Made by a program: the position numbers and the translations under genes | Part shown: piece by piece, positions 22,780 through 49,902 of the stretch | How the letters are laid out: every line of letters begins with the position of its first letter | Position numbering within the stretch: the stretch's first letter is position 1 | Notes under the pieces: generated by a model | Told to the model about the DNA's origin: nothing | Database searches by the model: none | What the model saw: the letters and a program-made list of their open reading frames with translations, nothing else | DNA from: Tabrizicola sp. | GTDB taxonomy: Bacteria > Pseudomonadota > Alphaproteobacteria > Rhodobacterales > Rhodobacteraceae | DNA length: 56,726 nucleotides | Direction of reading: 5' to 3' | Assembly: GCF_031377265.1 (NCBI RefSeq) | Contig: NZ_JANMET010000111.1 | Span: 1 to 56,726, forward strand

Positions 22780-23468
22780 TCTGCGGCGGCCTTCAGTTCC
22801 GGGGCAAGGTTGCCATCCGCCAGCCGCACCACGCGGTCGCAGCGGGCGGCAAGTTCGGCGGAATGAGTGACCAGCACCAGCGTCGCCCCGTGTTGGTCAC
22901 GCAAGCCGAATAACAGGTCCATGATCGCCTGACCGTTGACGCCATCAAGGTTGCCAGTGGGCTCATCCGCCAGAAGGATGGCGGGGCGCGGAGCGGCGGC
23001 GCGGGCAAGGGCGACGCGCTGCTGTTCGCCGCCCGACAGCTGCGAGGGGTAGTGATGCAGCCTTGGGCCAAGGCCAACCGCGACCAATTCCGCCTCGGCG
23101 CGGGCGAAGGCATCGGTCACATTCGCGAGTTCCATGGGCAAAGCCACGTTTTCAAGCGCGGTCATGGTGGGAATGAGGTGGAAGGATTGGAAAACCACCC
23201 CCATATTCCCCCTACGAAAGCGGGCAAGCGCATCTTCGTCCATTGCGGTGAGATCCTGGCCCAACGCCATGACCGACCCGCCGGAGGCACGTTCAAGCCC
23301 GCCCATCAGCATGAGGAGCGATGATTTGCCTGACCCCGATGGCCCGACCAGCCCGACCGATTCGCCGCGCGAGATGGAGAGAGAGATGCCTTTCAGGATG
23401 TTTACCGGACCGGCATTGCCCTGCAAAGTGAGGCGTGCATCGGTGAGCACGAGGATCGGATCGGTCAT
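22776..23468 (-). CDS. ABC transporter ATP-binding protein (YbbA/LolD-like)
   Basis: Walker [10 protein letters not shown], signature [14 protein letters not shown] and Walker [13 protein letters not shown]. The start is chosen at MTDPILVL. Confidence 0.9.
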
Positions 23469-24165
23469 GCGGTCTGCCCTTAAGGAACTGTCTGGATTGG
23501 CATATGGCGCGGTTTGCCAGTTCCGCAATGCTGCAGTTGCGATATTTGCACTGTCAAGTTCAGTTTTTGCCGAACCGGTGACGATTGTGGCATTGGGAGA
23601 CAGTCTTACGGCGGGTTACGGGTTGCAGGATCAGAACGACGGCTTTGTGCCGCAGCTGCAGGCCTGGCTGCAAGCGCAGCGGGCGGATGTGGTGGTGCAG
23701 AATGCCGGGGTTTCGGGCGACACGTCGGCGGGCGGTCTGGCACGGCTGGATTGGGCGCTGGGGCCGGAGGTCGATGCGCTGATCGTGACGCTGGGCGGCA
23801 ACGACATGCTGCGTGGGCTGGACCCGGTAGGCACCCGCGCGAGCCTTGAGGGCATTTTGCAAAAGGCTGGCGAGCGGGGATTGCCGGTGCTGTTGGTGGG
23901 GATGCAGGCGCCGGGGAACTTTGGCCCGGACTACAAGCTGACCTTCGACGCGATGTATCCGGAGCTGGCGGCGCAATATGGCAGCCTGCTGGAGAACAGC
24001 TTCTTTGACGGGCTGGTGGCGGCGGGGGCCATCGCGGGCGACCCGGCATCGTTTGCCCCGTTCATGCAGGCCGACGGTATTCATCCGAACCCGGAGGGTG
24101 TGAAGTTGATCGTGCAGGGGCTGGGGCCGAAGGTGCTTGAATTGCTGGGGCGGGTGAAGGGTTAG
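23467..24165 (+). CDS. SGNH/GDSL arylesterase-thioesterase (TesA-like), secreted
   Basis: GDSLTAGYG (block I), GGNDMLRG (block III) and DGIHPN (block V), with a signal-like AIFALSSSVFA|EP. The ATG at 23467 shares a CATG with the divergent ABC ATPase start, so the real start may be the in-frame TTG about 30 nt downstream. Confidence 0.8.
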   Translation: MRSALKELSGLAYGAVCQFRNAAVAIFALSSSVFAEPVTIVALGDSLTAGYGLQDQNDGFVPQLQAWLQAQRADVVVQNAGVSGDTSAGGLARLDWALGPEVDALIVTLGGNDMLRGLDPVGTRASLEGILQKAGERGLPVLLVGMQAPGNFGPDYKLTFDAMYPELAAQYGSLLENSFFDGLVAAGAIAGDPASFAPFMQADGIHPNPEGVKLIVQGLGPKVLELLGRVKG

Positions 24166-27133: not shown

Positions 27134-29206
27134 TCAATTACCTGAGACGGTCCTGACCTCAAGCTGCAAGATGGCTGGCAGCGGGCCGGTTGCATCGGAT
27201 TCGTCAGTCAGGGCGACGACGCCGCGCGTTGCCTCGCCAAAACCCGCATCGCGGAACATGTCGTTCAACGGGCTGGCCGCCGCGCTGCGAGAGAGTTCTG
27301 CCGCGTCCTGCGCCAGATAGCCCAGATCCTCGACCGGGCTTTGCGGTTTGGCGGGGGTCACGACGATGATCATGCGTTCCTGGCCAAGGACAGTGTCGCT
27401 GATCTTGAACAGGCCCTTTTTCAGTTCGTCGCCCGGCTGCAGCCGCCCCGAAAACCAATGGCTGATCGAGTAGTCCGCGCCCACGTAAAGCACGTTCACG
27501 TCGACCGAGATGTCCATGTTGTTGCGCGCCAGTACGTGAACTTCGTCATCGGGGATAAGGGTTGGCACCGGCATGAAGGGCAGCGGCTTCAGGGTGCGGT
27601 CTTCGGGGTTGCGGGTCAGCATCTCGACCTCGACGTCAAGATTGCCGCTGCCCAAGGCATCGCCCAGCTTCAGCAGGTTCAGCGCCTTGGACATCGTGGC
27701 CAGCGTATCGCCGACCGCAAGGGCCAGGGTCGCGGAATCCTTGTCGGCGGTCGAGATCGAGGGCGTGGTCGCCAGATCTTCGGCGAGACCGGTAGAGAGC
27801 AGCACCCAGATCGCATCCGGGCGTGGGCTGTCGGCGATCACGGCCAGACGCAGGTCAGCCTCGGCCCCGGCGTTCACGAAGGTGAGGCGCGGGCCGGCCT
27901 CGGCCTTAAGGGCGTCGAGGGCCGCAAGCAGCGCGTCGGCGGGGGCGGTGCCGGGTTCTGGCAGCGCGACCGTCAGGGAAAAGTCGAGCGTGCTATCAAG
28001 CTTGCGCAGGAAGACGCCCTTGGGCAGGTCAGCGGGCAGCACTTTCCCATCCTTGGCCACAGCGACTCCGGTCGAGGTAAAAGTGTCGACCGAAGCCAGC
28101 TCGACAAAGCCGATGGCCGCGTCCGATGCGTCTGCCGCCGTTGCCATCACCGCCAGAACCGCGCCTTCGGACAGGCCGTGCAGCGACCCCGCCGGAATGA
28201 CAAAACTGCCGTCGGTCACGCTGGCCTGCCATTGCGCGACGCGTTCGCCGCCGACGCCGCCGAAAACCACCGCATCAAGATCGCCCTCGAACAGCGGGGT
28301 GGAGCGGGCGAGGTTCTTGACGGAATACTTACGCAACACCTCTTGCGCGATCTGCCCGTACGTGGCGCCGGGGTATTCGGCCAGCGTTTCCATCAGCGCA
28401 TAGGTGAACACGCCCTGCGGCTTGCGGTCAGGCTTGCCCTTGGGCAGGTTCTTTTCCGGCGTCACTTCATTGGTCTGCGCGGCGAAGAAAGCGACAAAGC
28501 TGCCATCGCCGTCGCCTGAGTCAAACGGAGCATCTTCGGGGGTGCGCGGGTCGCCAATGCTGCGGGTGACGACATCTTCCATTGCTTCAGGGGCGATCCC
28601 CAGGACGGCTGGGTCAAGTTGGCGGGTGCGCACCTCTTCATCACCAGCATCGACGCCGCGGGTAGCAGTGCCGGAATGACAGCTGTCAAACACTGCCCAG
28701 ACATCGACACCCTTGGCGCGCAGGGCATCAATCATGGCGCCGATCTCGTCATCAACAAGCGCGTTTTCGACATGGCCGGTAGTGTCGGACCATTGGCCGA
28801 TATCGACCGGCAGGAACAGCTCGTCCAGACCGTCAAGTTCCGAGGCCGGGTCTGCGGCAGGGGCTTGGGTGCCGTGGCCGGAGAAGTGCAGATAGACGAA
28901 ATCGCCCGGCTGCACTTTGGCCGTCAGATCGGTAAAGGCAGTGCGGATCGCGCCAAGGGTTGCGGGCGCTACGTCATCGCGGCCATCGGTCAGAACTGTG
29001 ACGTTCTCGGCCGCAAATGGCACCGGGGCCTCGGTCGTAAGGTAGGTGGCAACCAGCGCCACGTCATTGGCCGGACCCTTCAGCCACCAGCGTTCCTCGA
29101 GGTTGCGGTATTCGTTCGCGCCGATCAGGATCGCATAGTTTTCCCGTGCGAAAGCTGGCAGCGACAGGGCGGATAAGGCGGTGGCCAGAAGGAATTGGCG
29201 AATCAT
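27134..29206 (-). CDS. exported caspase-family (peptidase C14, orthocaspase-like) protein with a large C-terminal extension
   Basis: Signal peptide MIRQFLLATALSALSLPAFA|RE. The His/Cys dyad sits in YLHFSGHGTQ (His111) and VFDSCHSGT (Cys176; I checked codon TGT at 28679..28681). There is also a p10-like GVFTYALMETL block. The C-terminal ~200 aa resemble the DUF4384-type beta domain often fused to C14. Confidence 0.85.
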   Translation of the reverse strand: MIRQFLLATALSALSLPAFARENYAILIGANEYRNLEERWWLKGPANDVALVATYLTTEAPVPFAAENVTVLTDGRDDVAPATLGAIRTAFTDLTAKVQPGDFVYLHFSGHGTQAPAADPASELDGLDELFLPVDIGQWSDTTGHVENALVDDEIGAMIDALRAKGVDVWAVFDSCHSGTATRGVDAGDEEVRTRQLDPAVLGIAPEAMEDVVTRSIGDPRTPEDAPFDSGDGDGSFVAFFAAQTNEVTPEKNLPKGKPDRKPQGVFTYALMETLAEYPGATYGQIAQEVLRKYSVKNLARSTPLFEGDLDAVVFGGVGGERVAQWQASVTDGSFVIPAGSLHGLSEGAVLAVMATAADASDAAIGFVELASVDTFTSTGVAVAKDGKVLPADLPKGVFLRKLDSTLDFSLTVALPEPGTAPADALLAALDALKAEAGPRLTFVNAGAEADLRLAVIADSPRPDAIWVLLSTGLAEDLATTPSISTADKDSATLALAVGDTLATMSKALNLLKLGDALGSGNLDVEVEMLTRNPEDRTLKPLPFMPVPTLIPDDEVHVLARNNMDISVDVNVLYVGADYSISHWFSGRLQPGDELKKGLFKISDTVLGQERMIIVVTPAKPQSPVEDLGYLAQDAAELSRSAAASPLNDMFRDAGFGEATRGVVALTDESDATGPLPAILQLEVRTVSGN

Positions 29207-29215
29207 GAGGAACCC

Positions 29216-29851
29216 TCAGTTGGTCATCAGCGCGTAATTCGTTGCAGTTGGGCCGTTGTTTTCAACCCTCAGGGTGAAGGTGCCGCCGGTGGCCGGGGTC
29301 CAACCGCAGTAGGCAATGTGCGAAACATCGGTATCAGAACAGACCAGACGGCCCTGATCATCAAGGACGGTGAGGTTGAGATTGGTCGACGACTTTGCCT
29401 CGACATAGACTTCGGCATACTCGCCACCGCGAAATTCGATGGGCGGGTAGGTGTCATCGCTGCCGTTGGGCAACGCGCCGATGTTGTAGACCGGTCCGGA
29501 GGCCACGCCCTTGTTGGTTTCCGCGCGGACATCTTCGATCAGGCCAAGCATGGCTTCATCGCCGGTCGCCAGAGGTTCGGCACTGGCCAGCATTTCGTCC
29601 CAGCCAAGCGGGGCGTCAATTGCAGTTTGCCCGCCAGTGGCCGTGCGGTCGGTGGGGGTTGGCGCGATGGTCTTGCGCAGTTTCGCGGCAGCGATGATCA
29701 AAAGCGGATCTTGCGCCTCAAGCCCGACCGCGTAGAGCCGGGCAGAAAGCGCCGCCACCTTCACCGGCGACGGAACTTCGGCCAGGGCTGCCATCGGCAG
29801 GGCAGACAGCAGAAGGGTTGCAAGCAACGATCGGGTCATGCGGGCGCTCAT
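29216..29851 (-). CDS. secreted PPC-like (pre-peptidase C-terminal type beta-sandwich) domain protein, paralog 1
   Basis: The internal start gives MSARMTRSLLATLLLSALPMAALA|EV. The C-terminal half reads YAEVYVEAKSSTNLNLTVLDDQGRLVCSDTDVSHIAYCGWTPATGGTFTLRVENNGPTATNYALMTN and is paralogous to 38355..39056 and 39165..39860. Only 9 nt separate it from the caspase gene. Listed ORF 29216..30502 is a gross 5' over-extension. Confidence 0.7.
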   Translation of the reverse strand: MSARMTRSLLATLLLSALPMAALAEVPSPVKVAALSARLYAVGLEAQDPLLIIAAAKLRKTIAPTPTDRTATGGQTAIDAPLGWDEMLASAEPLATGDEAMLGLIEDVRAETNKGVASGPVYNIGALPNGSDDTYPPIEFRGGEYAEVYVEAKSSTNLNLTVLDDQGRLVCSDTDVSHIAYCGWTPATGGTFTLRVENNGPTATNYALMTN

Positions 29852-29925
29852 CAATACGGGTCTTGAGGCTGAAACATGAGGCCGGCCCGCGCCCCTGTAA
29901 ACACTCAAGTTTTCGATGACAGGCT

Positions 29926-29942
29926 TTGTCATGTGCCTCGGT
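29926..29942. promoter_or_regulatory. inverted repeat ATGACA-N5-TGTCAT in the divergent promoter region of the protease cluster
   Basis: Perfect 6-bp arms between the PPC1/caspase-1 operon (minus strand) and the HtrA-like operon (plus strand). Direct TGAGGC repeats also occur at 29864 and 29877. The function is inferred only. Confidence 0.25.
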
Positions 29943-29968
29943 TGGGGCGGGCTGGTAGCGTTGGGGCA

Positions 29969-31342
29969 ATGAAGCAGATCAGAGGGTCCGGAATGTTGTT
30001 TCGAAAAGCCGTCAAGCGGGTGCAACCGCTGGTGTGTATGGTTGAGGCGGTGGCCGTGGTAGTGGTCCTGGCGTTGGTGGCACTGGTGTCGCCTGCACAG
30101 GCAACGCCCTTGGACGCGGCGATGGACACGGTCTTTACGGTGCGCAGCGCCGATGCCGAAGACCGATTTCTGGGGTCGGCGTTCCTGTGGGGCGAGGCGG
30201 GTGAGGTTGCCGTGACCAACGCGCATGTCGTGGGTGCAGCAGAGGACGTTCGTCTGATTGACCGGCATGGCAACGAAACGACAGCGCTGGTTATCGCGCG
30301 TGATCCGGTGCGCGATGTGGCGGTGATTTCGGTCACGCCGGGGCGGCGGGGGCTGGTGATCGCCGATACCGTACCGGGGCTGGGGGCCGAGGTGTTCGCG
30401 CTTGGGGCGCCGCTGGGGGTCGAGTTCACGTTGACCGAAGGCCGGATTTCGGCGGCGGACCGGCAAGTGGAAATCGCAGTGCCGATGTTGATGCTGCAGC
30501 ATGATGCAGCGGTCAATCCGGGGTCGTCGGGCGGGCCGCTGGTGGACGCCGTGGGGCGGCTGGTTGGCATGAACAGCCAGATCGCCGACGGTAGCCGGAT
30601 GTTCGTGGGCATCGCTTACGCGATTCCTGCCGCTGATCTGTCGCGCATCGTGGCGGGGCTGATCGACGAGACCCTGGCACCGTTTCCGTCGTTGGGCATG
30701 ATGGCGCGCCCGGTGGACCGGCAGGTGGCTGGTGCGCTGGCAGTTACGCCCGCAGGGCTGTTGATCGACGGGGTCGAGGCCGGTGGTCTGGCAGAAATGT
30801 CGGGTCTGATGGCGGGGGATATCATTCTGGCGGTTGATGGGGTGGCACTGAAGCAGGCTGGTGATTTCGCCTTTGGCATCGAGGCCGCGGTGGCGAATGG
30901 CCAGGCGGCGGTGGCAATCTTACGCGGCAAGGATGCGATGGTTGTCATGCTGGCGTTTGGTGCAGGCGAGGCGGGTGAAGCCTTTGGCATCGGCATCAAG
31001 ACCCGGCAGATTGCGGGCGGCAACCCGGAACAAGTGACAAGCTATCGTCTTTCGGCGCTGGGCCTGATGCTGGGTGAGGGCGGGCTGGTCGAGGATGTGA
31101 CCGACAATTCCCCAGCCCTGTTTGCCGGGATCGCCAAGGGCGACCGGATCATCGCTGTGAACGGCGAGAAAGTGGATCTTGGCGCCCTGAGCGCGCTGGA
31201 GGTGACGGCAGCGGTGTTGATGCTGGTGACGGCTCCGGGCGGCGAGACACGGCATATCTACCTTGATCCCTGGGGTGCGACCGAGGGAGTGCGCCCGGTG
31301 GGCGGTGCAAATGTGCTTGACCCGGACGTGGTGGTGTTCTGA
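29969..31342 (+). CDS. exported HtrA/DegP-like serine protease (S1C) with two PDZ-like domains
   Basis: Catalytic triad contexts VTNAHVV, RDVAVI and NPGSSGGPLVD. Two PDZ-like segments are present (LLIDGVEAGGLAEMSGLMAGDIILAVDG; LVEDVTDNSPALFAGIAKGDRIIAVNG). The signal/TM reads VVVLALVALVSPAQA|TP. The start is 29969 or 29993. Confidence 0.85.
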   Translation: MKQIRGSGMLFRKAVKRVQPLVCMVEAVAVVVVLALVALVSPAQATPLDAAMDTVFTVRSADAEDRFLGSAFLWGEAGEVAVTNAHVVGAAEDVRLIDRHGNETTALVIARDPVRDVAVISVTPGRRGLVIADTVPGLGAEVFALGAPLGVEFTLTEGRISAADRQVEIAVPMLMLQHDAAVNPGSSGGPLVDAVGRLVGMNSQIADGSRMFVGIAYAIPAADLSRIVAGLIDETLAPFPSLGMMARPVDRQVAGALAVTPAGLLIDGVEAGGLAEMSGLMAGDIILAVDGVALKQAGDFAFGIEAAVANGQAAVAILRGKDAMVVMLAFGAGEAGEAFGIGIKTRQIAGGNPEQVTSYRLSALGLMLGEGGLVEDVTDNSPALFAGIAKGDRIIAVNGEKVDLGALSALEVTAAVLMLVTAPGGETRHIYLDPWGATEGVRPVGGANVLDPDVVVF

Positions 31343-31360
31343 AACAGGACAGAGCATAGG

Positions 31361-32065
31361 GTGGGTGCCATGATTGAGCGCATTCTGATCGTGGAAGACG
31401 ATGCCGAGACCGCTGCCGCAGTGCGCGCAGTGGTGGAGGGGCTGGGCTGCGCCGCAGATCACTGCGACACGCTGGACGCCGGGATCGCGGCGGCGCATTC
31501 GGGCGATTACCGGGTGATCGTGCTGGACCGGATGCTGCCGGGCGGTGACGGGGTTGAGGCGATGGCGCGCATCCGGGCCGGCGGGTCGCGGGCGATGATC
31601 CTGATCCTGTCGGCGCTGGGACGGGCTGCAAACCGGGTCGAGGGGCTGGAGAAGGGCGCCGACGACTATCTGCCTAAGCCGTTCGAGGCGGACGAATTGC
31701 GCGCGCGGATACGGGCGCTGCTGCGACGTGGCACGATGCAGGTGCTGGACAACGATTTGATGGCCTTTGGTGATCTGGAAATCCGGCTGAAGGCGCGGAC
31801 GGTGCATGTCAAGCGCGCGCATGTGGCGGTCAGCCCCAAGGAGTTTGAGCTGATCACCTATTTCGCCAGCAATGCCGGGCAGTTGGTCACGCGGATGCAG
31901 CTGTTGGAAAACGTCTGGAACCTGCATTTCGACCCCGGCACCAACGTGGTTGACGTGCATGTCGGGCGGCTGCGGCGTAAGCTGGAGGAAGCCGGATCGC
32001 AGGCTATCCAGACCGCGCGGGGCGAGGGTTACATCTTTGCGCCGCCCACCGGGGCTGCCGGGTGA
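31361..32065 (+). CDS. OmpR/PhoB-family response regulator
   Basis: Receiver motifs are ILIVEDD, VLDRMLPGGDG, LSALG and KPF. The winged-helix output domain includes LSPKEFELITYF...VWNLHFDPGTNVVDVHVGRLRRKL. The start is GTG 31361 or ATG 31370. Confidence 0.9.
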   Translation: MGAMIERILIVEDDAETAAAVRAVVEGLGCAADHCDTLDAGIAAAHSGDYRVIVLDRMLPGGDGVEAMARIRAGGSRAMILILSALGRAANRVEGLEKGADDYLPKPFEADELRARIRALLRRGTMQVLDNDLMAFGDLEIRLKARTVHVKRAHVAVSPKEFELITYFASNAGQLVTRMQLLENVWNLHFDPGTNVVDVHVGRLRRKLEEAGSQAIQTARGEGYIFAPPTGAAG

Positions 32066-33444
32066 CGGCGGCCAAGGGGCCGGCTGCCAAGCCTCTGGCC
32101 GCACGAGCTACTTTGCGTCTGGCGGCACTGATGGCGCTGGCGGTCACAGTCTTGTCGATGGTCGGAATGGGGCTGCAATACCGTCTGGTCGAAGGCCGGA
32201 TGATGGCGGCGCAGCGGGCGCTGCTGACCGCCGATCTGGATGGGTTCGCGGCGCTTTACGACCAGCGCCGGATCATCGCGCTGCGTCAGGCCATCGAGTA
32301 CCGGGGGGCGGCGGCCACCGGTGAAGAAATGCTGTTGCTGATGGACCGCAACGGCAAGGTTCTGGCCGGCACGCGGGAAGGCTGGCCAAAGCAGCTGGAG
32401 CCGGAAGGAGCGGATTTCGAGATTGAACCGGCGCAGGTGTTTTCCGAGGCGGGTGTGCGCTGGCTGGCCGTCGCGCGGGATTTGCCGGGGGGGTTTCCGC
32501 TGCTGGTGGCGCGCAGCCTGAAGCCGGTGGATGACACGCTGGCGGCAATGCGGCGCGGGATGCTGGGCTTGCTGGCAGCAATTCTGGTGGCGGGGGCCGG
32601 GGTGGGTTGGATGGCGGCGCGGTCCGTGATGGCGCGGATCGGGCGGGTCAATGCCCTTGCCGACCGAGTGGCGGAAGGCGAGTTGGACGCGCGTCTGTCA
32701 GGCGCGCGGTCCGACGACGAGTTTGGCATGCTGGAGACCCACGTCCACGCGATGCTGGACCGTATCCAAAACCTCAACCGCGCGACGCACCGCCTTTCAG
32801 ATACCATCGCGCACGAACTGCGCACACCGCTGAACCGTATGCTGCAGAAACTGGCGAAGATCGATGGGCAAGAGGAGGTGACCGCCGATCTGCGGGCCGA
32901 GATGCGGCAGGCGATCAAAGTGTTCGATTCGCTGCTGGATATCAGCCGGGCCGAGGCCGATCAGGGCAGTGGCGGGGGGCTTCAGCCAGTGGATCTGTCA
33001 GCCGTGGCGCGGGAAGTGTGGGAGCTTTACGAGCCGTTGGCCGAGGACAAGGGGATGGTTGCAGATGCGTCGATCCTGCCGGGGTCCATGGTGTTGGGCG
33101 ATCGGAACCTTATTGCGCAGATGCTGTCGAACCTGATCGAGAATGCGATCAAGTATTGCGCGGCAGGTGACCGGGTGACGTTGTCGCTGGCCGATGCCGG
33201 GGATCGGTATCTGATGCGGGTTGCAGATACCGGGCCGGGTCTGCCCGAAGACATCAAGGGCGAAGCGTTCGAGCGGTTTGTGCGCGCCGAGCGTGACCGG
33301 GGCATCAAGGGGCACGGGCTTGGGCTGGCGCTGGTGCGGGCAATTGCGGCGCGGCATGGGGCGCGGCTGGAGCTGCCGCCCAGCGACACGGGTTTCGTGC
33401 TTGAAATCACCTGGCCAAAGATACAGTCATCGCGGGCCCCTTAG
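32062..33444 (+). CDS. sensor histidine kinase (2 TM, periplasmic sensor, HAMP, HisKA, HATPase_c)
   Basis: H-box HELRTPLN, N-box LSNLIENAIKY, G1 DTGPGL and G2 GHGLGLALV. Its GTGA start overlaps the response regulator stop. Confidence 0.9.
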   Translation: MTAAKGPAAKPLAARATLRLAALMALAVTVLSMVGMGLQYRLVEGRMMAAQRALLTADLDGFAALYDQRRIIALRQAIEYRGAAATGEEMLLLMDRNGKVLAGTREGWPKQLEPEGADFEIEPAQVFSEAGVRWLAVARDLPGGFPLLVARSLKPVDDTLAAMRRGMLGLLAAILVAGAGVGWMAARSVMARIGRVNALADRVAEGELDARLSGARSDDEFGMLETHVHAMLDRIQNLNRATHRLSDTIAHELRTPLNRMLQKLAKIDGQEEVTADLRAEMRQAIKVFDSLLDISRAEADQGSGGGLQPVDLSAVAREVWELYEPLAEDKGMVADASILPGSMVLGDRNLIAQMLSNLIENAIKYCAAGDRVTLSLADAGDRYLMRVADTGPGLPEDIKGEAFERFVRAERDRGIKGHGLGLALVRAIAARHGARLELPPSDTGFVLEITWPKIQSSRAP

Positions 33445-33459
33445 CATCTACAGGTTTGC

Positions 33460-34890
33460 ATGCGCATCGCCATCATCCTGCTTTTGATCCTTGCCGGTTG
33501 TGCACCGTGGAACTGGCCGCAGAACCTGCCCCTGAATGGCGAGAACGCGGCACTGGTTGAACCGCTGGTAGTGGGGGATGGCGAGCTGTACATCGGCCTC
33601 GCATTTTCCGGAGGCGGCATGCGGGCCACGGCGTTTGCCTACGGAATGCTGAAGGAATTGCGCGCCGCGGGCATGGTGACCGGCACCCCGAATGGCCTGT
33701 TGGATCACGTCAGGCTGGTTTCCGGCGTTTCGGGTGGGTCGGTGATGGCGGCGCAGTTCGGGTTGAACGGCCCGCAGGGTCTGGACGGATTCCGCGAGAC
33801 TTACCTGATCACCAATGCCGAGAAGTACATGGCGACATCTGCCCTGAACCCGTTGACCATCGCCAAAGGCGTGGCGGGAGGGGTGAATAGCCGCGAAACT
33901 TTCGGGCGCTATCTGGACGAGGTGCTGTTCAAGGGCGCCACCTTTGGCGACCTGCGCAAACGATCAGGGGTCAAGACCTGGATCAACGCGACCGACGTTG
34001 CCAACAACACGCCCTTCCTTTTCAGCCCGGAAACGTTTGACGCGTTGTGTTCTGATCTTTCGAAGGTGCTGCTTTCGGAAGCGGTTGCTGCTTCTGCCGC
34101 CTATCCGCTGGTGTTCACCCCGATCGTGCTGACCGCGCATCATGGCAAATGCGACTACCGTGAGCCGGACTGGCTGACCGCCGCGCGCTATAACCCCGAG
34201 GCGACGGCTGCGATGCGGGCACATGCGCGGGCGCTGGAAAGCTATGGCAACCCCGACGAGGTGAAATTCGTCAAACTGCTGGATGGCGGCATCACCGACA
34301 ACTTCGGCACGACGGGTCTGGCAGTGGAACGTGCCCGCGCGCAGGCGCCATTTGCACCGATGACGCCAGAGGAGGCGGTGAAACTGAAGCGGATGCTGTT
34401 TCTGGTGGCCAACGCGGGGGTGGAAAAGGATTACGATTGGACGCGGCGGGTGGCAGGCCCCGGTGGTGTCGGGATGGCGATGTCGATTGCGACCAGTGCG
34501 ATGGCCGCCGCATCGCGGTCGGGGTACGATTCGATGCGAGGTGAACTGCGGTTCTGGGAGACGGAACTGATCGAATGGCGCTGTGCGCTGCCTCTGTCAG
34601 AAGTGCGTCGGTTGCGCGGCTCGACCGATGGCTGGGATTGCAGGGACGTGAAGCTGTTCGTCGGTGAGGTAAGCTTTGCCAGCCTGCCTGACGCCACGCG
34701 CGACAAGCTGGACGAAGTGCCGACGCGGTTGAAGCTGGCAGCAGCGCAGGTTGACATGGTGATCGAGGCTGGGCGTCTGGCCACGCGGGCGGCACCGGAG
34801 TTCAACGGCTTTCTGGCGTCGTTGGCCGGAAATGGCGTGGAAGGCCGGATTGCGGCGGGCGGGCGGCGTGTCGTGCCCTTGGGAAACTGA
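33460..34890 (+). CDS. patatin-like phospholipase, predicted lipoprotein
   Basis: Lipobox MRIAIILLLILAGC, oxyanion loop GLAFSGGGMRATAF, nucleophile elbow GVSGGS and catalytic Asp motif LLDGGITDNFG. Confidence 0.85.
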   Translation: MRIAIILLLILAGCAPWNWPQNLPLNGENAALVEPLVVGDGELYIGLAFSGGGMRATAFAYGMLKELRAAGMVTGTPNGLLDHVRLVSGVSGGSVMAAQFGLNGPQGLDGFRETYLITNAEKYMATSALNPLTIAKGVAGGVNSRETFGRYLDEVLFKGATFGDLRKRSGVKTWINATDVANNTPFLFSPETFDALCSDLSKVLLSEAVAASAAYPLVFTPIVLTAHHGKCDYREPDWLTAARYNPEATAAMRAHARALESYGNPDEVKFVKLLDGGITDNFGTTGLAVERARAQAPFAPMTPEEAVKLKRMLFLVANAGVEKDYDWTRRVAGPGGVGMAMSIATSAMAAASRSGYDSMRGELRFWETELIEWRCALPLSEVRRLRGSTDGWDCRDVKLFVGEVSFASLPDATRDKLDEVPTRLKLAAAQVDMVIEAGRLATRAAPEFNGFLASLAGNGVEGRIAAGGRRVVPLGN

Positions 34891-34965
34891 CATGGCAATG
34901 ACAAATGCGGTCATGGTCCGCGAGACACTTGTTCTGTGACCCGGGCCGGGTATCTTTGCGCCATC

Positions 34966-36924
34966 ATGCCGTACAGATTTCCATATGTTCTTTCTTTTGC
35001 TGCAGCCTTTGCGGCCTGTCCCGTTCAGGCCGAAGTGCGCGCCGTACTGATCGGCGTCAGCGATTATCTGGTGCTGGACGCCGATCTGCAGGGTCCGTCT
35101 TATGACGTGGCGCTGATGGCCGAGACGTTGGTGGTGCGCGGCGTGGACGCGGGCAAGATGACGGTGCTGACGGCCACCCCCACCGGCCTGCCAGCGGGTG
35201 TTGTCACCGGTCAGCCCGTGCGCGCCGAGATCATTGCGGCGATGGAGGCGGCGGCTGCGGCCTCGCAGCCTGGCGATACGGTGGTGTTCTACTTTTCGGG
35301 TCACGGCTCGCAGGCCCCGGACATGAGCGGCGATGAAGGCGGCGGCTATGACGAGATCCTGCTGCCCGCCGACGCAGCCGGGTGGAAGGGCGCGATCGGC
35401 GCGGTGGAAAACGCCTTGCTGGACGATGAGCTGCAAGCCTGGGCGCAGGGCATGCTGAGCCGTGGGGTAAAGCTGGTCGGGCTGGTTGATGCCTGCCATT
35501 CGGCCACCGGCTTTCGGGCGATTGGCGGCGAAGGCGTGGCGCGGGTGCTGGACCCTGAGGCGCTAGGCATTCCGGATTACATCGCTACAGTGGCGGGCGC
35601 CGAGGCTCCGCCGCTGTCGGGCGATTTCGTGTTTCTGTATTCCTCGCAGTCCGATCAACGGTCGTTCGAATACCCGTTGGGAGATGATGGCACCTGGCAT
35701 GGCGAGTTCACCCTGCGCCTTGCCGAGGTGTTGCGTAGCGCGCCGACGGCAAGTTGGGCGCAAGTATTGGCGGCCACTACGGATGCGATGGTGCAAGGTC
35801 CCGCGCGGCAGATGCCGGAAGGCGAAGGCACCTTGCTGGACGCGCAGGTGTTTGGCGCTGGTGCGGCTGAGGCGCGCATGGTGGTCGAGGGGGACGTTCT
35901 GAAGGCGGGTCTGTTGCAGGGCCTGACCGCAGGCAGTGAGGTGGCGCTGTATGCTGGCCCTGCTGGTGGCGATGCCTTGGGAAGGATGACCATCACCGAT
36001 GTGACCGCACGCGAAGCGCGTCTGGACGGCCCGGTGCCGAAAGGTGCAGTTTGGGCCGAACTTGTCAGTCTCGCCCCGCCAGCGCCGCTTACGCTGGCCG
36101 AACCGGTGCGCGCGGATGCGGCGGACGGATTGGATTATGCCGAATGGCTGGCGGCATTGCCTTCGGGCGAAGGGCCAGCTGACCTTGTGCCGATCCTGAC
36201 GGAAGGCAGCGTGGCGTTGGCCAATGCAGATGGCGTGCTTGACCCCGAAGGGCCGGGTTCCAGCCCCCGAATCATGCTTGAGGCCGGTGAGACCGCTGCC
36301 ATGGCCGTGGACCGGATGCTGGCGCAAGCCGAGCACGGCCTGCGTCTGCGCGAGGTGCTGGCTGGGGCGGCCGGGCGCAGTTTGACCGGCAAGGCGGCAG
36401 TGTCGATGCAGATCGAACGCCGAGTTGCGGCGGCGGCCGATGGGGCCTGCGCCGCGCCCGAGGCGGCGGTGGCCTATGATCCGGCGGACGGGGTTTCCGC
36501 CTGTGACCAGATCTGGCTGACGTTGACCAACACCGGTGGCAAGGCGCAGGATGTCTCGGTGCTGTACTTTGCCGCCAATTTCGAGGTGACCCCGATCTGG
36601 CCTGCGCAGAACCTTGCGAACCGGCTGGCACCGGGCGAAAGCGTCCGAGTGGGAATGCAGATCGAGCCGGGGCAGACGGCGGGGCTTGAGGAGATCTGGG
36701 TTCTGGCGGTGCCCGTAGATCCCGATGCCCCGCGCGTCGACCTGACACGCCTTGCAACGCCGCAGATGACGCGCGCCTTTGCAGGTGCCTCCGATGAGGT
36801 GACGATCTGGCTGGAAGGGCGGATGATCCCGCCAGACGAGGCCAGGACGCGCGGCTTCACGATTAAACCTGCCCCCCTGACGATGATCCGTCAGGTGGTG
36901 CGACTGAACCCCGGGACGGTGTGA
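34966..36924 (+). CDS. exported caspase-family (peptidase C14) protein, paralog 2, with a C-terminal extension
   Basis: Signal/lipobox-like MPYRFPYVLSFAAAFAACPVQA|EV. The dyad sits in VFYFSGHGSQ (His113, CAC at 35302..35304) and LVDACHSAT (Cys177, TGC at 35494..35496). It shares DE(I/L)(F/L)LP.D and VENAL.DDE blocks with 27134..29206. Confidence 0.85.
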   Translation: MPYRFPYVLSFAAAFAACPVQAEVRAVLIGVSDYLVLDADLQGPSYDVALMAETLVVRGVDAGKMTVLTATPTGLPAGVVTGQPVRAEIIAAMEAAAAASQPGDTVVFYFSGHGSQAPDMSGDEGGGYDEILLPADAAGWKGAIGAVENALLDDELQAWAQGMLSRGVKLVGLVDACHSATGFRAIGGEGVARVLDPEALGIPDYIATVAGAEAPPLSGDFVFLYSSQSDQRSFEYPLGDDGTWHGEFTLRLAEVLRSAPTASWAQVLAATTDAMVQGPARQMPEGEGTLLDAQVFGAGAAEARMVVEGDVLKAGLLQGLTAGSEVALYAGPAGGDALGRMTITDVTAREARLDGPVPKGAVWAELVSLAPPAPLTLAEPVRADAADGLDYAEWLAALPSGEGPADLVPILTEGSVALANADGVLDPEGPGSSPRIMLEAGETAAMAVDRMLAQAEHGLRLREVLAGAAGRSLTGKAAVSMQIERRVAAAADGACAAPEAAVAYDPADGVSACDQIWLTLTNTGGKAQDVSVLYFAANFEVTPIWPAQNLANRLAPGESVRVGMQIEPGQTAGLEEIWVLAVPVDPDAPRVDLTRLATPQMTRAFAGASDEVTIWLEGRMIPPDEARTRGFTIKPAPLTMIRQVVRLNPGTV

Positions 36925-36957
36925 TCCCATGTCGAGTGATGGAAGGACGGATGCAAA

Positions 36958-38019
36958 ATGAGACTGCGTTTTGGACTGGCACTCCTCCCGCTGGTGCTTG
37001 CGACCGGGCTGGGTGCGGAAACAGCGGCCACCGAACTGGCCCCGGCTTTTGCGGCAGAGGAGGGGAACAGTTCGCCCTTTGCCTTTGCCAAAAGCGGCGC
37101 CAAGGCGGCGCGCGCGGCAGTGGCGGACACCGCGGGTGCCAAGGTCATCGGTGGCGAAATTGCAGCGGAAGGAGCGTGGCCATGGCAGGTTGCACTGCTG
37201 GTGGGTGGCACGCCAGTGGGCACCGACACGCAGTTCTGCGGCGGGTCGCTGGTAATGGATGAATGGGTGCTGACGGCGGCACATTGCGTCCATTGGAAGG
37301 GCGATGACGGAACCTTTGCCGATCTTCTGCCGCAGGATATCGAGGTGCTGGTGGGCACCAACGAGTTGAGCCCCGGAAGAGGCGACTTGATCGAAGTGGA
37401 GGCCGTGTTCAAGCACCCGTCCTATGTGGGAACGCAGTTCGATTTCGACATAGCGCTGGTGAAGCTGGCCCGCGCGCCGATGGTGCCGTACCAAACCATC
37501 GAAGTGCCGGATGGAGAATTTGGCGACATCCTGAACAAGCAGGGCGTGACGACTGTGGTCACCGGCTGGGGTTTGCAGGAAGGGGCGATGCCGTCGCCCG
37601 AATTGCGTCAGGCGCAGATCCAGATCCTCGACCGCGACCTGTGTAACAACGCGATGATGGAAGCGCGGGCCGAGGATGCGGCGGGCGGCTTTACCTATGC
37701 CGCGCAGACGCTTGGTGTGGCAGAGCAGGACGCCTATGCAATCTGGGATGAACTGGTTGCCCGCGCGCCATTGCCGGTCAGCGAGAACATGATCTGTTCA
37801 GGCACCTTCGAGGGCGGCAAGACCAGTTGCAACGGTGACAGTGGCGGACCTTTGGTCGTGCCGCTGGACGATGGCAGCTATATTCAGGCCGGGATCGTAA
37901 GCTGGGGTCTGACGGCCACAACCGGCAAGGGCTGCGAAGAGACGGCGTTGTTTTCGGCCTACACCAACATCTCGAAGTTCGTACCCTGGCTTAATCAGGT
38001 GATCGCGGCCAACCCCTGA
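36958..38019 (+). CDS. secreted trypsin-like serine protease (S1A, chymotrypsin fold)
   Basis: Signal peptide MRLRFGLALLPLVLATGLGA, then IGGEIAAEGAWPWQVALL, FCGGSLVMDEWVLTAAHC (His), DIALVKL (Asp), CNGDSGGPLV (Ser) and GIVSWG. Confidence 0.9.
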   Translation: MRLRFGLALLPLVLATGLGAETAATELAPAFAAEEGNSSPFAFAKSGAKAARAAVADTAGAKVIGGEIAAEGAWPWQVALLVGGTPVGTDTQFCGGSLVMDEWVLTAAHCVHWKGDDGTFADLLPQDIEVLVGTNELSPGRGDLIEVEAVFKHPSYVGTQFDFDIALVKLARAPMVPYQTIEVPDGEFGDILNKQGVTTVVTGWGLQEGAMPSPELRQAQIQILDRDLCNNAMMEARAEDAAGGFTYAAQTLGVAEQDAYAIWDELVARAPLPVSENMICSGTFEGGKTSCNGDSGGPLVVPLDDGSYIQAGIVSWGLTATTGKGCEETALFSAYTNISKFVPWLNQVIAANP

Positions 38020-38048
38020 CCCGCCCCAGTATCACAATGCGAACACAC

Positions 38049-38084
38049 GCCCCGTGCCTTGTTTTGAGGCGCGGGGCTTTTCTT
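38049..38084 (+). terminator. intrinsic terminator after the trypsin-like gene
   Basis: 10-bp stem GCCCCGTGCC / GGCGCGGGGC (one G-U pair), a 9-nt loop, followed by TTTTCTT. Confidence 0.6.
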
Positions 38085-38154
38085 GCGGTTTGACGGCCGG
38101 TGGCTGGGGGATCATGCAGCATCGGCAAATGTTGCGCTGGTGGACGGGGGCGAA

Positions 38155-38187
38155 GCCTCCGGCGGGGATATCTGCGAAGGGGAAGCC
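38155..38187. repeat. intergenic repeat element, copy C
   Basis: GCCTCCGGCGGGGATATCTGCGAAGGGGAAGCC. Its first 17 nt are identical to 43787..43803, and the remainder is similar. Confidence 0.5.
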
Positions 38188-38270
38188 ATTGGGAGAGCGC
38201 GATGCGCTGATGCGTTTGGTGACGCTGCAGGGCCACTGTTTGTGCCAGACATAGCGGCCTTCCGCCCAAG

Positions 38271-38299
38271 CAAAAGGCCCGGACAGTGCTGCCCGGGCC
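38271..38299 (-). terminator. intrinsic terminator after PPC paralog 2 (minus strand)
   Basis: On the minus strand, the hairpin GGCCCGG(G)...CCGGGCC is followed by TTTTGCTT. Confidence 0.5.
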
Positions 38300-38354
38300 G
38301 TTGGTCTTGGAAGAGTGTTGCGTGCGCAGTTACCCGCGCAAAGCTTGCCGCCGG

Positions 38355-39056
38355 TCAGTTCGTCATCAGGTAATAGCTGTTGCGCGCCCGACCCATGTTC
38401 TGCACCGTCACGTAAAAGTAGCCGTCCCAGGACGGAGTGAAGTTGCAATAGAGCGAGTCCGACCAACTGACATCGTAGCAGAACACGTTGCCGTTTTCGT
38501 CGGTGATTGCCACATCAAGGTTGGCATCGCCGTCGCCCACGACGGCAATCTCGGCATAGGAGTTGCCATAGAACGGGATCTCCCAGACATCGGTCTGGCC
38601 CGATGGCAGCCGCGACAGCCAACTCACCGCCCCACCTATCCGTCCGCGCGAGCCTTCGGCTTCGGCGTCGGCGATAAGGCCCATCAGGATTTCGTCATCC
38701 GCAGCCAGTTCCTTGGCCTTGGCCAGCATCATCATCGCGTCGACCGGGGCGTCGGCTGCACCTTCTGCATCATCGGCGGGCATGTCGCCAGTCGTGGTTT
38801 TCTTGATGTCGCCGCCTTCTTTCACTTCCACGCCCATCGCCAGCTTGGCAGCGGTCAGCACGGTCAGTGCATCGCCTGACGCCACGCCCATCGCATAAAG
38901 CTGGCTGGCAAGGCCAAGGGTTTCGGCGCCACCAGCCGGTGAAGCGGCAGCCTCGGTGTTCACGTTGGTGCCCGTCTTGTCCTGTGCCATCACAGGCAGC
39001 GCGAGACCGATCAAGGCGGTCGTCGAGAGGGCGATCGAAAGGGATTTCAGGGTCAT
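38355..39056 (-). CDS. secreted PPC-like domain protein, paralog 2
   Basis: Signal MTLKSLSIALSTTALIGLALPVMA|QD. The C-terminal half reads SYAEIAVVGDGDANLDVAITDENGNVFCYDVSWSDSLYCNFTPSWDGYFYVTVQNMGRARNSYYLMTN. Confidence 0.75.
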   Translation of the reverse strand: MTLKSLSIALSTTALIGLALPVMAQDKTGTNVNTEAAASPAGGAETLGLASQLYAMGVASGDALTVLTAAKLAMGVEVKEGGDIKKTTTGDMPADDAEGAADAPVDAMMMLAKAKELAADDEILMGLIADAEAEGSRGRIGGAVSWLSRLPSGQTDVWEIPFYGNSYAEIAVVGDGDANLDVAITDENGNVFCYDVSWSDSLYCNFTPSWDGYFYVTVQNMGRARNSYYLMTN

Positions 39057-39075
39057 GGTTTATCCTATTCGTTGG

Positions 39076-39094
39076 CCGCCCCGGAGCGGGGCGG
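39076..39094 (-). terminator. GC hairpin between PPC paralogs 3 and 2
   Basis: 8-bp stem CCGCCCCG / CGGGGCGG with a 3-nt loop and no U-run. It could be an attenuator, a processing site or a weak terminator. Confidence 0.35.
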
Positions 39095-39164
39095 GATGCA
39101 GTGACTTTGGCAGGGTGGAAGTGCTTTGAGAAGACGGTTTGGCGTGACAAATATCGTCATATTC

Positions 39165-39860
39165 CTAATTGGTCAGCAGTTTGTAGCTGTTTACAGCCGT
39201 TCCGGTGTTGGCGACTGATATCGTGAAAAACCCATTCCGGGCGGGAACAAAGTCGCAAAACACCTGATCCGAGGCAGAAAGATCGGCGCAGATCAGTTTG
39301 CCTTCGGCATCGGTGACAACCAGATCAAGGTTGCTGTCACCGTCGCCCAGCAGGGCGATTTCAGCATAGCTTTCGCCAAAGAACGCAATTTGCCAGACAT
39401 CGGTTTGCCCGGCAGAAAGGTCTGACGTGGCGGCCGCTGCGGCCTCGATCCGGCCGCGCGGCAGTTGCGCGTCAAGGTCATAGACCAGATCCTGCAAGGC
39501 CGGGTCCTCCCCAGCCAGTGCCCGGGCTAGGACGATGGCCTGATCGCCCGCGGGGTTGGCCGCCGCACTGGCACCGGTCGGCTGATCAGGGATCGCGGTG
39601 CCAGTGGTTTCCTTCTTCCACCCCGCCGCCGGGCGTTCGGTGACGCTGCGCGCAAGGCGGATTGCGGTCAGCAGGGTGGTGGTGTCGCTGTCGCGCAGGG
39701 CGGTCGCATAAAGCTTGTAAGCCATTGCGAGTGTGGTTGCAGGGCCCGGCGCACCGTGCGGATTTGCGCTGAGGTTCGGCGCTTCGGCCAGCGTGGGGCT
39801 GGCGATAAGTGCTGCGATCAAAGAAAGGCGGGTCATCTGAATCCGGGGTATGGTTTCCAC
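39165..39860 (-). CDS. secreted PPC-like domain protein, paralog 3
   Basis: Signal (METIPRIQ)MTRLSLIAALIASPTLA|EA. The C-terminal half reads SYAEIALLGDGDSNLDLVVTDAEGKLICADLSASDQVFCDFVPARNGFFTISVANTGTAVNSYKLLTN. The start is 39860 or 39836. Confidence 0.7.
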   Translation of the reverse strand: METIPRIQMTRLSLIAALIASPTLAEAPNLSANPHGAPGPATTLAMAYKLYATALRDSDTTTLLTAIRLARSVTERPAAGWKKETTGTAIPDQPTGASAAANPAGDQAIVLARALAGEDPALQDLVYDLDAQLPRGRIEAAAAATSDLSAGQTDVWQIAFFGESYAEIALLGDGDSNLDLVVTDAEGKLICADLSASDQVFCDFVPARNGFFTISVANTGTAVNSYKLLTN

Positions 39861-46014: not shown

Positions 46015-46223
46015 GCGGAAAACCATCAAAAGGTGCAACAGGGGCAAGCCCGCGCGACCCTATCCGCAGCAGTGCGGAAAGGCGAGGGCGGCAGGTGCAG
46101 ACGACGGCAGGTCCGGCTGCGCGACCATGGCTGCATGACTGTGGCCGGGCATTGCTGAGGTGTTGAGTGTGAGCGGCTTACGTGGGATCACTTGCGGACC
46201 AGCGCCTCAGAACCGGATGACAA

Positions 46224-49825: not shown

Positions 49826-49902
49826 GGCTAGGTAGCTCAGCTGGTTAGAGCACGCGACTCATAATCGCGGGGTCGGGGGTTCGAGTCCCCCCCTCGCCAC
49901 CA
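49826..49902 (+). tRNA. tRNA-Met (anticodon CAU), elongator type
   Basis: I folded the cloverleaf by hand. The acceptor stem is GGCTAGG/CCTCGCC (one U-C mismatch) and the D arm is GCTC-AGCTGGTTA-GAGC. The anticodon arm is CGCGA-CTCATAA-TCGCG and the T arm is GGGGG-TTCGAGT-CCCCC. A 3' CCA is encoded. It resembles E. coli elongator tRNA-Met, but tRNA-Ile2 (lysidine) cannot be excluded from sequence alone. Confidence 0.9.

Follow-up and report, generated by a model that had tools for sequence, protein, structure and literature searches.

Ten genes for exported hydrolases and a two-component system

The DNA analysed here, called the window throughout, is a stretch of 56,726 nt (about 64% GC) from the freshwater alphaproteobacterium Tabrizicola sp., contig NZ_JANMET010000111.1, whose closest proteins are those of Tabrizicola and other Paracoccaceae, and this report concerns a cluster of genes within it for caspase-like, HtrA-like and trypsin-fold proteases, a patatin-like lipoprotein, small PPC-like proteins and a two-component system. 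Reading of the open reading frames (ORFs) together with Pfam searches gave ten genes, where a first-pass annotation made from the letters of the sequence had counted eleven. Two are on the minus strand, casp1 (27134-29206, Pfam Peptidase_C14) and PPC1 (29216-29851, with an alternative start at 29839), which lies 9 nt upstream of casp1 and encodes a paralog of PPC2 and PPC3. Six follow on the plus strand: the HtrA-like protease gene, htrA (29993-31342, longest ORF from 29876; Trypsin_2 and two PDZ domains), the response regulator (RR) gene (31361-32065, likely start 31370; Response_reg and Trans_reg_C), the histidine kinase (HK) gene (32062-33444; HAMP, HisKA and HATPase_c), the patatin-like lipoprotein gene (33460-34890; Patatin), casp2 (34966-36924, the ORF being open from a GTG at 34936; Peptidase_C14) and the S1A protease gene (36958-38019; Trypsin). 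The last two, again on the minus strand, encode the PPC-like paralogs PPC2 (38355-39056, 233 amino acids) and PPC3 (39165-39860, likely start 39836). The spacing described earlier was found again, with 9 nt separating PPC1 from casp1, the RR and HK genes overlapping by 4 nt and the remaining gaps being of 15-75 nt, and so were the intact catalytic motifs, all of which could be read directly in the translations (the C14 dyads, two Ser-His-Asp triads and the patatin GxSxG and DGG). As had also been noted, none of the ten genes encodes an NTPase, nuclease, toxin-antitoxin or secretion component.

Every structural protein keeps an N-terminus with an n-region, an h-region and an AxA signal in 15 orthologous loci, and the patatin lipobox (L-x-G-C) is likewise conserved in 15 orthologous loci, in agreement with the earlier statement that each structural product begins with a signal peptide or lipobox; all eight non-regulatory products are predicted to be exported. 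The signal peptide of Casp1 (...LPAFA↓RENY) is conserved in its orthologs. The public gene call for Casp2 is of 629 amino acids and begins past the signal peptide, but a longer form from the ATG at 34966 is supported by orthologs and by the position of an operator box (see below), and truncated gene calls such as this would mask the export of these caspases in automated surveys. For the HtrA-like protein a conserved Shine-Dalgarno sequence and ATG make 29993 the likely start, and its N-terminus could be a signal anchor instead of a cleaved signal.

Both caspase-like proteins have the fold and His-Cys dyad of metacaspase-like C14 proteases. Casp1 (690 amino acids) matched the Pfam C14 model with E = 1.3e-16 (61.5 bits) and Casp2 with E = 1.4e-21 (77.7 bits; cutoff 21.4 in each case), and the translations contain the catalytic motifs SGHG and DSCHSG in Casp1 and SGHG and DACHSA in Casp2. 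The two proteins align with Yca1 across GxxND, the acidic cluster and D-x-C-H-S-G (Casp1 retaining DSCHSGT), and an AF2 model of Casp2 (pLDDT 74) gave metacaspases as its best Foldseek matches (E = 4e-10). In both, the Asp of GxxND and a second Asp, two residues N-terminal of the catalytic Cys, have aligned counterparts in Yca1, and we take these, from what metacaspase structures have shown, to be S1 residues; an Arg/Lys specificity is expected by homology. The C-terminal extensions of about 350-360 amino acids have no Pfam match, relaxed searches with the C-terminal halves finding nothing up to E = 10, and Foldseek on the full-length Casp2 model was dominated by the caspase domain, the C-terminal half yielding no assignment. 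Metacaspases and orthocaspases (MEROPS C14B; Yca1, TbMCA2, GSU0716) thus have the same fold, dyad and acidic cluster and the same pair of putative S1 Asp, but Casp1 and Casp2 have in addition a clear Sec signal and a C-terminal extension, and share their regulon with serine proteases and PPC-like proteins. An earlier metacaspase survey (PMC3501461) had already pointed to alphaproteobacterial operons with several metacaspase genes and to N-terminal helices which are possibly signal peptides; a regulon context of the present kind is not described in that survey. A lone full-length Casp2-like gene was also seen on a Mesorhizobium plasmid.

The HtrA-like protein (Trypsin_2, E = 2.3e-24, with PDZ matched twice) has the triad motifs NAHV, RDVAV and GSSGGP and the HtrA/DegP (S1C) architecture, in which a trypsin-fold triad is followed by PDZ domains, with a conserved N-terminal signal or anchor. 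It is not an equivalog of DegP, DegQ or DegS, as the Do-family model TIGR02037 scored 204 bits against a cutoff of 416 and the NCBIfam DegS, DegP and DegQ models fell far under their cutoffs. The S1A protease (Pfam Trypsin, E = 8e-45, 153.7 bits; TAAHC, DIAL and GDSGGP) has the features of a zymogen, namely the His57-Asp102-Ser195 triad and an [IV][IV]GG activation N-terminus: its propeptide of ~40 amino acids ends AGAK↓VIGG, K62 and V63 fall on the R↓IVGG of matriptase-2 in alignment, and the P1 residue is K or R in all orthologs. The same alignment places Thr at position 189 and Ser at 226 (GGKTSCNGDSGG), so that the Asp189 of trypsin is missing and "trypsin-like" therefore names the fold and not the specificity. 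A Lys/Arg P1 combined with a non-basic S1 pocket suggests a zymogen that would need a Lys/Arg-specific activator, self-activation being unlikely, and Casp2, which is always the neighbour of S1A, is the obvious candidate for this activator. The patatin-like lipoprotein (Pfam Patatin, E = 5e-17, 63.1 bits, cutoff 27.7) contains the family motifs GGGMR, GVSGG and DGG.

The HK has two transmembrane segments, a periplasmic domain of ~120 amino acids, and HAMP, HisKA and HATPase domains. Its best NCBIfam model was cztS_silS_copS (156 bits, cutoff 292.55), and that of the RR was cztR_silR_copR (166.7 bits, cutoff 279.2), which was barely ahead of other families, so both are below the TIGR01386/TIGR01387 cutoffs by which CopRS/CusRS are recognised. 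Copper or silver sensing, which this likeness had prompted us to consider, was not adopted, as the scores are sub-cutoff, the translated periplasmic stretch of the HK contains no His residue and there are no metal genes.

Inheritance as a block and a common operator box

A scan with a PPC alignment, using one genome per species, gave 80 loci from Tabrizicola, Fuscovulum, Cypionkella, Gemmobacter, Xinfangfangia, Neotabrizicola and relatives, the gene content of which was determined by tblastn with all window proteins (several loci end at contig edges). The complete block htrA-RR-HK-(patatin)-casp2-S1A plus PPC1(-casp1) was present in at least 23 of these 80 Paracoccaceae loci. The pairing of PPC1 with casp1 is retained in 14 loci, and casp2 and the S1A gene are adjacent in 36 of 36, the pair having been relocated jointly past the neighbouring M20 peptidase gene in three of them (L004, L006 and L009). 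Patatin was found in 18 loci and was missing from 13 that are otherwise complete, and is an accessory member; PPC3 is missing from Cypionkella- and Gemmobacter-type loci and is often absent. In 19 loci PPC2 is kept, with its box and with or without PPC3, when the protease block is missing within ~10 kb.

Decay was seen in two loci. In the metagenome-assembled genome (MAG) Rhodobacter sp. WM.3.37 (L067, 10800-18600) fragments of every block gene, protease, two-component and patatin alike, lie between an intact PPC2 and the MFS gene, with PPC3 and the flanks intact, and in Rhodobacter sp. YIM 73028 (L070, 11800-13600) casp2 is frameshifted and split over three frames. The same gene set was found by tblastn on ~80-kb plasmids of Pseudosulfitobacter pseudonitzschiae (Roseobacteraceae; 46 records), where it adjoins parAB, with identities to the window proteins of 54% for Casp1, 54% for PPC1, 41% for the HtrA-like protein, 56% for the RR, 41% for the HK, 59% for patatin, 41% for Casp2, 58% for S1A and 48% for PPC2. 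On these plasmids PPC1 and casp1 overlap by 1 nt, and two further proteins are encoded, a 908-amino-acid helical-repeat protein and a CHAT protease, each with a signal peptide. CHAT homologs also stand upstream of PPC2 in L040, L072 and L078, and an accessory plasmid of S. meliloti carries a gene for a secreted caspase, 34% identical to Casp1, between two PPC-like genes. The gene set is thus inherited, transferred and lost as a block, although it is not the self-contained cluster first proposed, since its content varies among loci (patatin and PPC3 being optional, PPC2 being found alone and CHAT/TPR proteins being added elsewhere).

Three observations were made in passing at these loci. On the Pseudosulfitobacter plasmid (L081, 10348-11786) the genes for patatin and Casp2 are separated by two insertions, a fragment of "cbb3 oxidase subunit I" (195 amino acids) and a glutamine amidotransferase of the DJ-1/PfpI type. 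The two S. meliloti PPC-like genes (L083, 8014-8766 and 11869-12621) are near-identical inverted duplicates, including their upstream regions, with IS/recombinase genes at the borders. An M20-PPC2 locus 72-76% identical to the window occurs in CP059262.1 (L074), which is labelled as the chromosome of an Exiguobacterium profundum MAG and is probably mis-binned or mislabelled.

An alignment of the PPC1/htrA intergenic region from 25 loci revealed an invariant palindrome, ATGAC-N7-GTCAT, which we read as ATGACA-N5-TGTCAT, with conserved CTGTAAA upstream and TAnC downstream of it in the direction of htrA. In the window, box 1 (ATGACAGGCTTTGTCAT, 29916-29932) lies in this divergent region and is followed by the TAnC element (TAGCGT, 29956-29961), box 2 (ATGACAAATGCGGTCAT, 34898-34914) is 52 nt before the casp2 ATG, and box 3 (ATGACGATATTTGTCAC on the minus strand, 39144-39160) is 88 nt before PPC2. 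The CTGTAAA element (29895-29901, plus strand), present in at least 80% of the 25 aligned regions and reading TTTACAG on the minus strand, is a candidate -35 element for PPC1 (with CATGTT at 29878-29873 as -10) or an additional half-site. With up to one mismatch allowed, five matches to the box were found against 1.3 expected window-wide, and three of the five are within intergenic DNA of the cluster. Box-like sequences at 46217-46233 (overlapping the rpoN start codon) and 53185-53201, with one mismatch each, have no conserved counterparts in L069, and we regard them as chance matches.

At the same stringency, a survey of 1.35 Mb of loci, covering up to 260 nt upstream of genes, found the box upstream of htrA in 26 of 26 loci, of casp2 in 31 of 36 and of PPC2-type genes in 47 of 86, at the same position, and none upstream of PPC3 (0/49), S1A (0/39), casp1 (0/22) or patatin (0/19). 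There were 141 boxes in the 1.35 Mb, 105 of them inside the scanned gene-upstream windows, and the Pseudosulfitobacter plasmid has degenerate boxes at all three equivalent sites. The box thus marks the promoters of htrA-RR-HK(-patatin) and the divergent PPC1-casp1, of casp2-S1A, and of PPC2. Where the first-pass annotation proposed three transcription units, the number of promoters is probably greater than three, casp2 and PPC2 each having an operator box of its own. Hairpins resembling intrinsic terminators, each with a T tract, were seen 3' of the S1A gene (38049-38077, plus strand, 13-bp stem) and 3' of PPC2 (38276-38299, minus strand, 10-bp stem with eight GC pairs).

Palindromes of the form ATKACA-N4-TGTMAT, in some cases accompanied by an additional half-site, are documented targets of AgrR, CopR and PcoR, of the heavy-metal-type OmpR family (PMC7380067). 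The half-sites of our box, ATGACA and TGTCAT, agree with the ATKACA and TGTMAT of the AgrR box (PMC7380067), and this, along with the subfamily scores of the HK and, marginally, of the RR, suggests with moderate confidence that the RR of the cluster controls all three boxed units; the geometry of box 1 and TAGCGT would fit a class-II activator at htrA. The likeness to CopRS, CusRS and AgrRS goes no further, as the spacer is of 5 rather than 4 nt, the scores are far under the cutoffs, the sensor lacks His and metal-resistance genes are missing. Two sets of other repeats came to light. A distant lineage with the same divergent layout (L088, 7630-8000) lacks the ATGAC box and has four (C/T)GTAAG repeats, and CTGACAGTTTTTTGTAAG precedes both S. 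meliloti PPC-like genes (L083, 8767-8941 and 11312-11868); either may represent lineage-specific regulator sites.

The earlier annotation had itself raised the concern that these genes might be together by chance; unrelated exported hydrolase genes could, by accident or history, have come to lie beside an HtrA/two-component stress locus. Most of the 80 loci are indeed from one family-level clade, where synteny is weak evidence, and the M20 gene is also syntenic though it is outside the cluster. However, beyond the synteny in at least 23 loci, the same set is present on plasmids of another family at 41-59% identity, the genes share a common operator and have decayed jointly in L067, and distant metagenomic lineages, counted after dereplication, again contain a core triad for which control DNA gave no matches (see below), and we consider chance adjacency to be very improbable.

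The divergent arrangement about box 1 also resembles that of the Cpx system, in which cpxP, for a small periplasmic protein, is divergent from the two-component operon cpxRA with a regulator site in between and degP belongs to the autoregulated regulon. PPC1 similarly diverges from an htrA/two-component operon with a box between them, and an HtrA-family member is included, but the box is a CopR-like palindrome rather than GTAAA direct repeats, caspase-fold proteases dominate and the set is patchy and mobile. By this comparison the cluster could be a Cpx- or sigma-E-type regulon for envelope stress or quality control, in which sensing of misfolded proteins induces HtrA and the other proteases, and the PPC-like proteins are adaptors or chaperones like CpxP and Spy. 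A PDZ-bearing HtrA-like gene at the head of an operon that also encodes an autoregulated two-component system, a small periplasmic, helical-domain protein encoded across the operator as in cpxP/cpxRA, products that would all be periplasmic and ordinary chromosomal flanks with no defence-island context are what such a regulon would be expected to have. Against it, the block is patchy (absent from 19 related loci), decaying in L067, plasmid-borne elsewhere and variable in its patatin, zymogen-controlled Arg/Lys endopeptidases would be unusual for bulk clearance, and in other lineages the core stands beside TPR-CHAT and TIR-like genes, so that we think a quality-control function unlikely.

The PPC-like family and a conserved core

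PPC1, PPC2 and PPC3 are mutually 34-43% identical. The AF2 model of PPC2 (pLDDT 87.6) has a signal peptide, two helical hairpins, an exposed RGR linker and an eight-stranded, disulfide-containing beta-sandwich ending ...YYLMTN. Foldseek matched the sandwich to GOLD, PPC, collagen-binding and Tk-SP jelly-roll domains (5sv5, 3jqw, 1nqd and 3afg, at probability 1.0), and the C-terminal 95 residues superposed on 5sv5, the ColH/ColG collagen-binding domain, the Tk-SP jelly roll and p24 GOLD with E of about 1e-5 to 1e-4 and target TM-scores of 0.6-0.8. By sequence, Pfam PF04151 (cutoff 25.9) gave PPC2 13.4 bits (E = 0.15) and a member from L158 20.6 bits, with no match at all for PPC1 or PPC3. The PPC label of the first-pass annotation therefore stands at the level of the fold but not of the sequence family. 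In addition to the sandwich, PPC2 has the PPC-typical motif D-x-D-L-D-L-x-V-x-D-x-x-G, but unlike PPC domains it is stand-alone, with an N-terminal double helical hairpin, an [RK]-G linker, a Cys pair and a C-terminal T-N.

When 1.84 billion representatives were searched with the family profile, 2725 clusters at 50% identity had E <= 1e-3 (336 with E <= 1e-30); those few that carry names are called "hypothetical" and come from Shimia, Neotabrizicola, Bosea and the gammaproteobacterium Pontibacterium. Features were counted in 154 members: the linker has a basic residue in 123 and Gly next to it in 122, the two Cys are present in 142 and 146, and the C-terminal Thr and Asn in 129 and 141 respectively, with a signal-peptide-like N-terminus in 139 of 146. 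The PPC-like proteins thus form a large, previously unnamed exported family, and their linker, [RK]-G-[R]-[VI]-G-G, would be another candidate for cleavage besides the site in the S1A propeptide. In the PDB the family profile matched only designed helical repeats, through the N-terminal hairpins, and, very weakly, Tk-SP, so that nothing there pointed to a function. The idea that the C-terminal T-N is a ligand for the HtrA PDZ domains, in the manner of DegS, was dropped as a general explanation, as the HtrA-like partner in L158 has no PDZ domain.

A small protein encoded next to a cysteine protease recalls the staphylococcal proteases, which are exported and activated stepwise by propeptide cleavage (aureolysin, then SspA, then SspB, with SspC; also scpAB), and among which staphostatin is a small beta-rich partner encoded beside the cysteine protease. 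The present locus has in common with that cascade an operon of exported serine and cysteine proteases and the small partner gene, but its cysteine proteases are of clan CD and not papain-like, it belongs to a Gram-negative envelope and has a dedicated two-component system, and the PPC-like fold is unrelated to that of staphostatin, an inhibitor function for it being putative. If the PPC-like proteins were self-protection inhibitors, this would explain the orphan PPC2 and PPC3 genes without proteases, and the cluster might then be a secretome serving attack or nutrition, with proteases and a lipase that leave the cell (in vesicles, for instance) and break down matrix proteins or neighbouring algae or bacteria. 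The hosts are bloom-, sludge- or diatom-associated Rhodobacterales, PPC2/PPC3 occur without the protease block in 19 loci, and the PPC genes are multicopy and translationally coupled to a protease gene, with staphostatin in the ssp/scp operons as a parallel. There is, however, no secretion system in the cluster or the window, patatin is a lipoprotein, the HtrA-like protein may be membrane-anchored and inhibition by PPC-like proteins is itself a proposal, and we regard such a secretome as quite unlikely.

The family also provided a means of looking for the cluster in distant bacteria. A metagenome scan with a 9-sequence alignment of a distant PPC subgroup gave 80 loci of 33-74% GC, the flanks of which were searched with hidden Markov models (HMMs) from the cluster proteins and which, dereplicated at 80% identity, formed 39 groups with at least 3 kb of flank. 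Within 8 kb of the PPC-like gene, a C14, CHAT or HtrA-like protein was encoded in 35 of the 39 groups, a clan-CD protease (C14 or CHAT) in 32 and an HtrA-like protein in 20, and the same HMMs had no matches in 390 kb of control DNA. The HtrA-like gene is directly upstream on the same strand in 21 loci, with a recurring order of HtrA-like, PPC and C14, and most of the neighbour proteins have signal-peptide-like N-termini. One locus, L088, with the layout HK<-RR<-HtrA / PPC->PPC->C14...CHAT, mirrors the window at 29-40% identity, and in low-GC loci Pfam places Trypsin_2, C14 and TPR-CHAT proteins around the PPC-like gene. This recurrence of neighbours in 35 of 39 groups argues that the conserved module consists of PPC-like proteins with caspase-fold and HtrA-like proteases, and that S1A, patatin and PPC3 are Rhodobacterales additions, so the emphasis first placed on three protease classes with a lipase is better moved to a core of PPC-like, clan-CD (C14 or CHAT) and HtrA-like proteins.

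In three low-GC loci from gut, rumen or termite (L142, 3754-14314; L149, 2462-12097; L158, 365-1595) the PPC-like gene adjoins ORFs that begin with F-x-SYS-x-x-D (TIR-like) and RyR/C39-like and MscS-like genes. Two small ORFs upstream of the low-GC loci might be a sigma/anti-sigma pair, but the one Pfam match was a weak one to DUF1492.

Cytoplasmic conflict modules built on caspase, CHAT and trypsin proteases (Kaur et al. 2020, PMC7159879; PMC12642450) use the same protease families with small companions, are patchy and mobile and are activated by site-specific proteolysis. The present cluster differs in being exported and under two-component control, and in lacking the STAND, MoxR and GTPase NTPases and the EAD, Trypco, Pepco and EACC1 domains; the first-pass annotation was right to separate it from the cytoplasmic STAND/CBASS-type effectors, as there is no NTPase or adaptor domain in the ten proteins and all the effectors have export signals. 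It could nevertheless be an extracytoplasmic branch of the caspase/CHAT/trypsin conflict systems, for abortive or self-lysis triggered by phage or damage, in which the cue is periplasmic, the cell's own envelope is destroyed and the PPC-like proteins are bait or latent effector. The repertoire of C14, CHAT, trypsin-like and patatin proteins does match that of known conflict systems (PMC7159879, PMC12642450), the set is mobile, patchy and prone to decay, low-GC loci have TIR-like neighbours, and there were weak PADLOC matches to caspase and phospholipase-effector models. On the other hand, PADLOC recognised no system, NTPases and nucleic-acid sensors are missing from the cluster, its copy in the window is surrounded by metabolic genes, and the published surveys that we examined describe no versions bearing signal peptides; we find this explanation somewhat unlikely as it stands.

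The window copy is flanked at one end by genes for an FAD oxidase and the MFS protein, and at the opposite end by those for the M20 peptidase and a formate/nitrite transporter, all of them metabolic or transport genes unrelated to the cluster. Elsewhere in the window, 20266-24165 encodes a MacB/FtsX-type permease, an ABC ATPase and a divergent GDSL lipase, a tesA-ybbA-ybbP-like unit also unrelated to it, and 43822-46047 is an ORF of 741 amino acids in which a pyridine-nucleotide disulfide oxidoreductase domain is fused to AIR-synthase-related (SelD-like) domains; this ORF adjoins rpoN, and a tRNA-Met gene (49826-49902) is ~4 kb away.

A candidate envelope proteolytic regulon

No named system matched the cluster, as had been said of it at first: PADLOC-DB v2 gave generic caspase, phospholipase-effector and protease-domain matches with no system-specific component, NCBIfam had nothing specific for the cluster proteins, and in the literature we found no description of the cluster or of the PPC-like family. 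The individual proteins belong to known families, and their arrangement fits none of the ssp operon, Cpx or the conflict modules. Our confidence is high that the module is genuine, that it is exported and co-regulated and that its roots are wide, and we favour, as rather probable, the reading that the window contains a single regulon of exported hydrolases under its own two-component system, built on a module of PPC-like, caspase-fold and HtrA-like proteins.

In such a regulon the HK would sense an envelope signal and the phosphorylated RR would bind the boxes, acting in a class-II-like manner at htrA and also providing autoregulation. Casp1 and Casp2 would be Arg/Lys-specific, and Casp2 would cut at K↓VIGG to activate the co-transcribed S1A zymogen. 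The PPC-like proteins would be the cognate partners of the caspase-fold proteases, as inhibitor, bait or latent substrate, through their exposed [RK]-G linker, and the activated proteases, with the patatin lipoprotein where it is present, would attack envelope components. The regulated proteolytic cascade suggested in the first-pass annotation has gained support at the level of sequence from the K↓VIGG site, the non-basic S1 pocket of S1A and the metacaspase S1 Asp, so that we place moderate confidence in it as a proposal; our confidence in any specific physiological role is low. As to output, we lean towards a response of the conflict or self-destruction type over housekeeping quality control. 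More tentatively still, and with considerable doubt, PPC-like, clan-CD and HtrA-like proteins may together be a widespread extracytoplasmic counterpart of the caspase/trypsin conflict systems, combining a periplasmic alarm, a PPC-like bait or latent effector cut at [RK]-G, a relay through a two-component system (elsewhere another envelope regulator) and a zymogen cascade that dismantles the envelope, in which case the copy in the window would be a Rhodobacterales elaboration of it, extended by the S1A zymogen and the patatin lipase.

Several points weigh against the favoured reading. It rests on computation for every member, and both the binding of the RR to the boxes and the cleavage of the S1A zymogen or PPC proteins by Casp2 are steps that we infer. 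The RR is not clearly CopR-like, its NCBIfam scores being nearly tied among families and its nearest PDB neighbours being KdpE, PrrA and MtrA. The PPC2 box persists even in genomes that lack a two-component system within 10 kb, and another regulator could therefore bind it; the persistence of PPC2 and PPC3 in 19 loci that lack the protease block similarly makes an independent role for them possible, and the [RK]-G motif could be structural. The signal peptides were assigned by ortholog conservation and a heuristic rather than by SignalP, the final site of the exported products could be the periplasm, the outer membrane, vesicles or the medium, and the breadth of the metagenomic loci is judged by their GC content.

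Of the numerous bacterial caspase homologs hardly any, to our knowledge, has been matched with a substrate, partner or trigger, and the ones that are understood work in the cytoplasm. The cluster provides exported metacaspase-like enzymes with a candidate regulator and operator, a candidate zymogen with a defined cleavage site and a conserved partner family, one of ~2700 sequence clusters, all "hypothetical", found with C14/CHAT proteases across widely differing GC. Should the proposed links fail, it would still be a clean example of a mobile regulon under two-component control; should they hold, it would represent a new envelope proteolytic pathway and would give a name and a context to a large orphan family.

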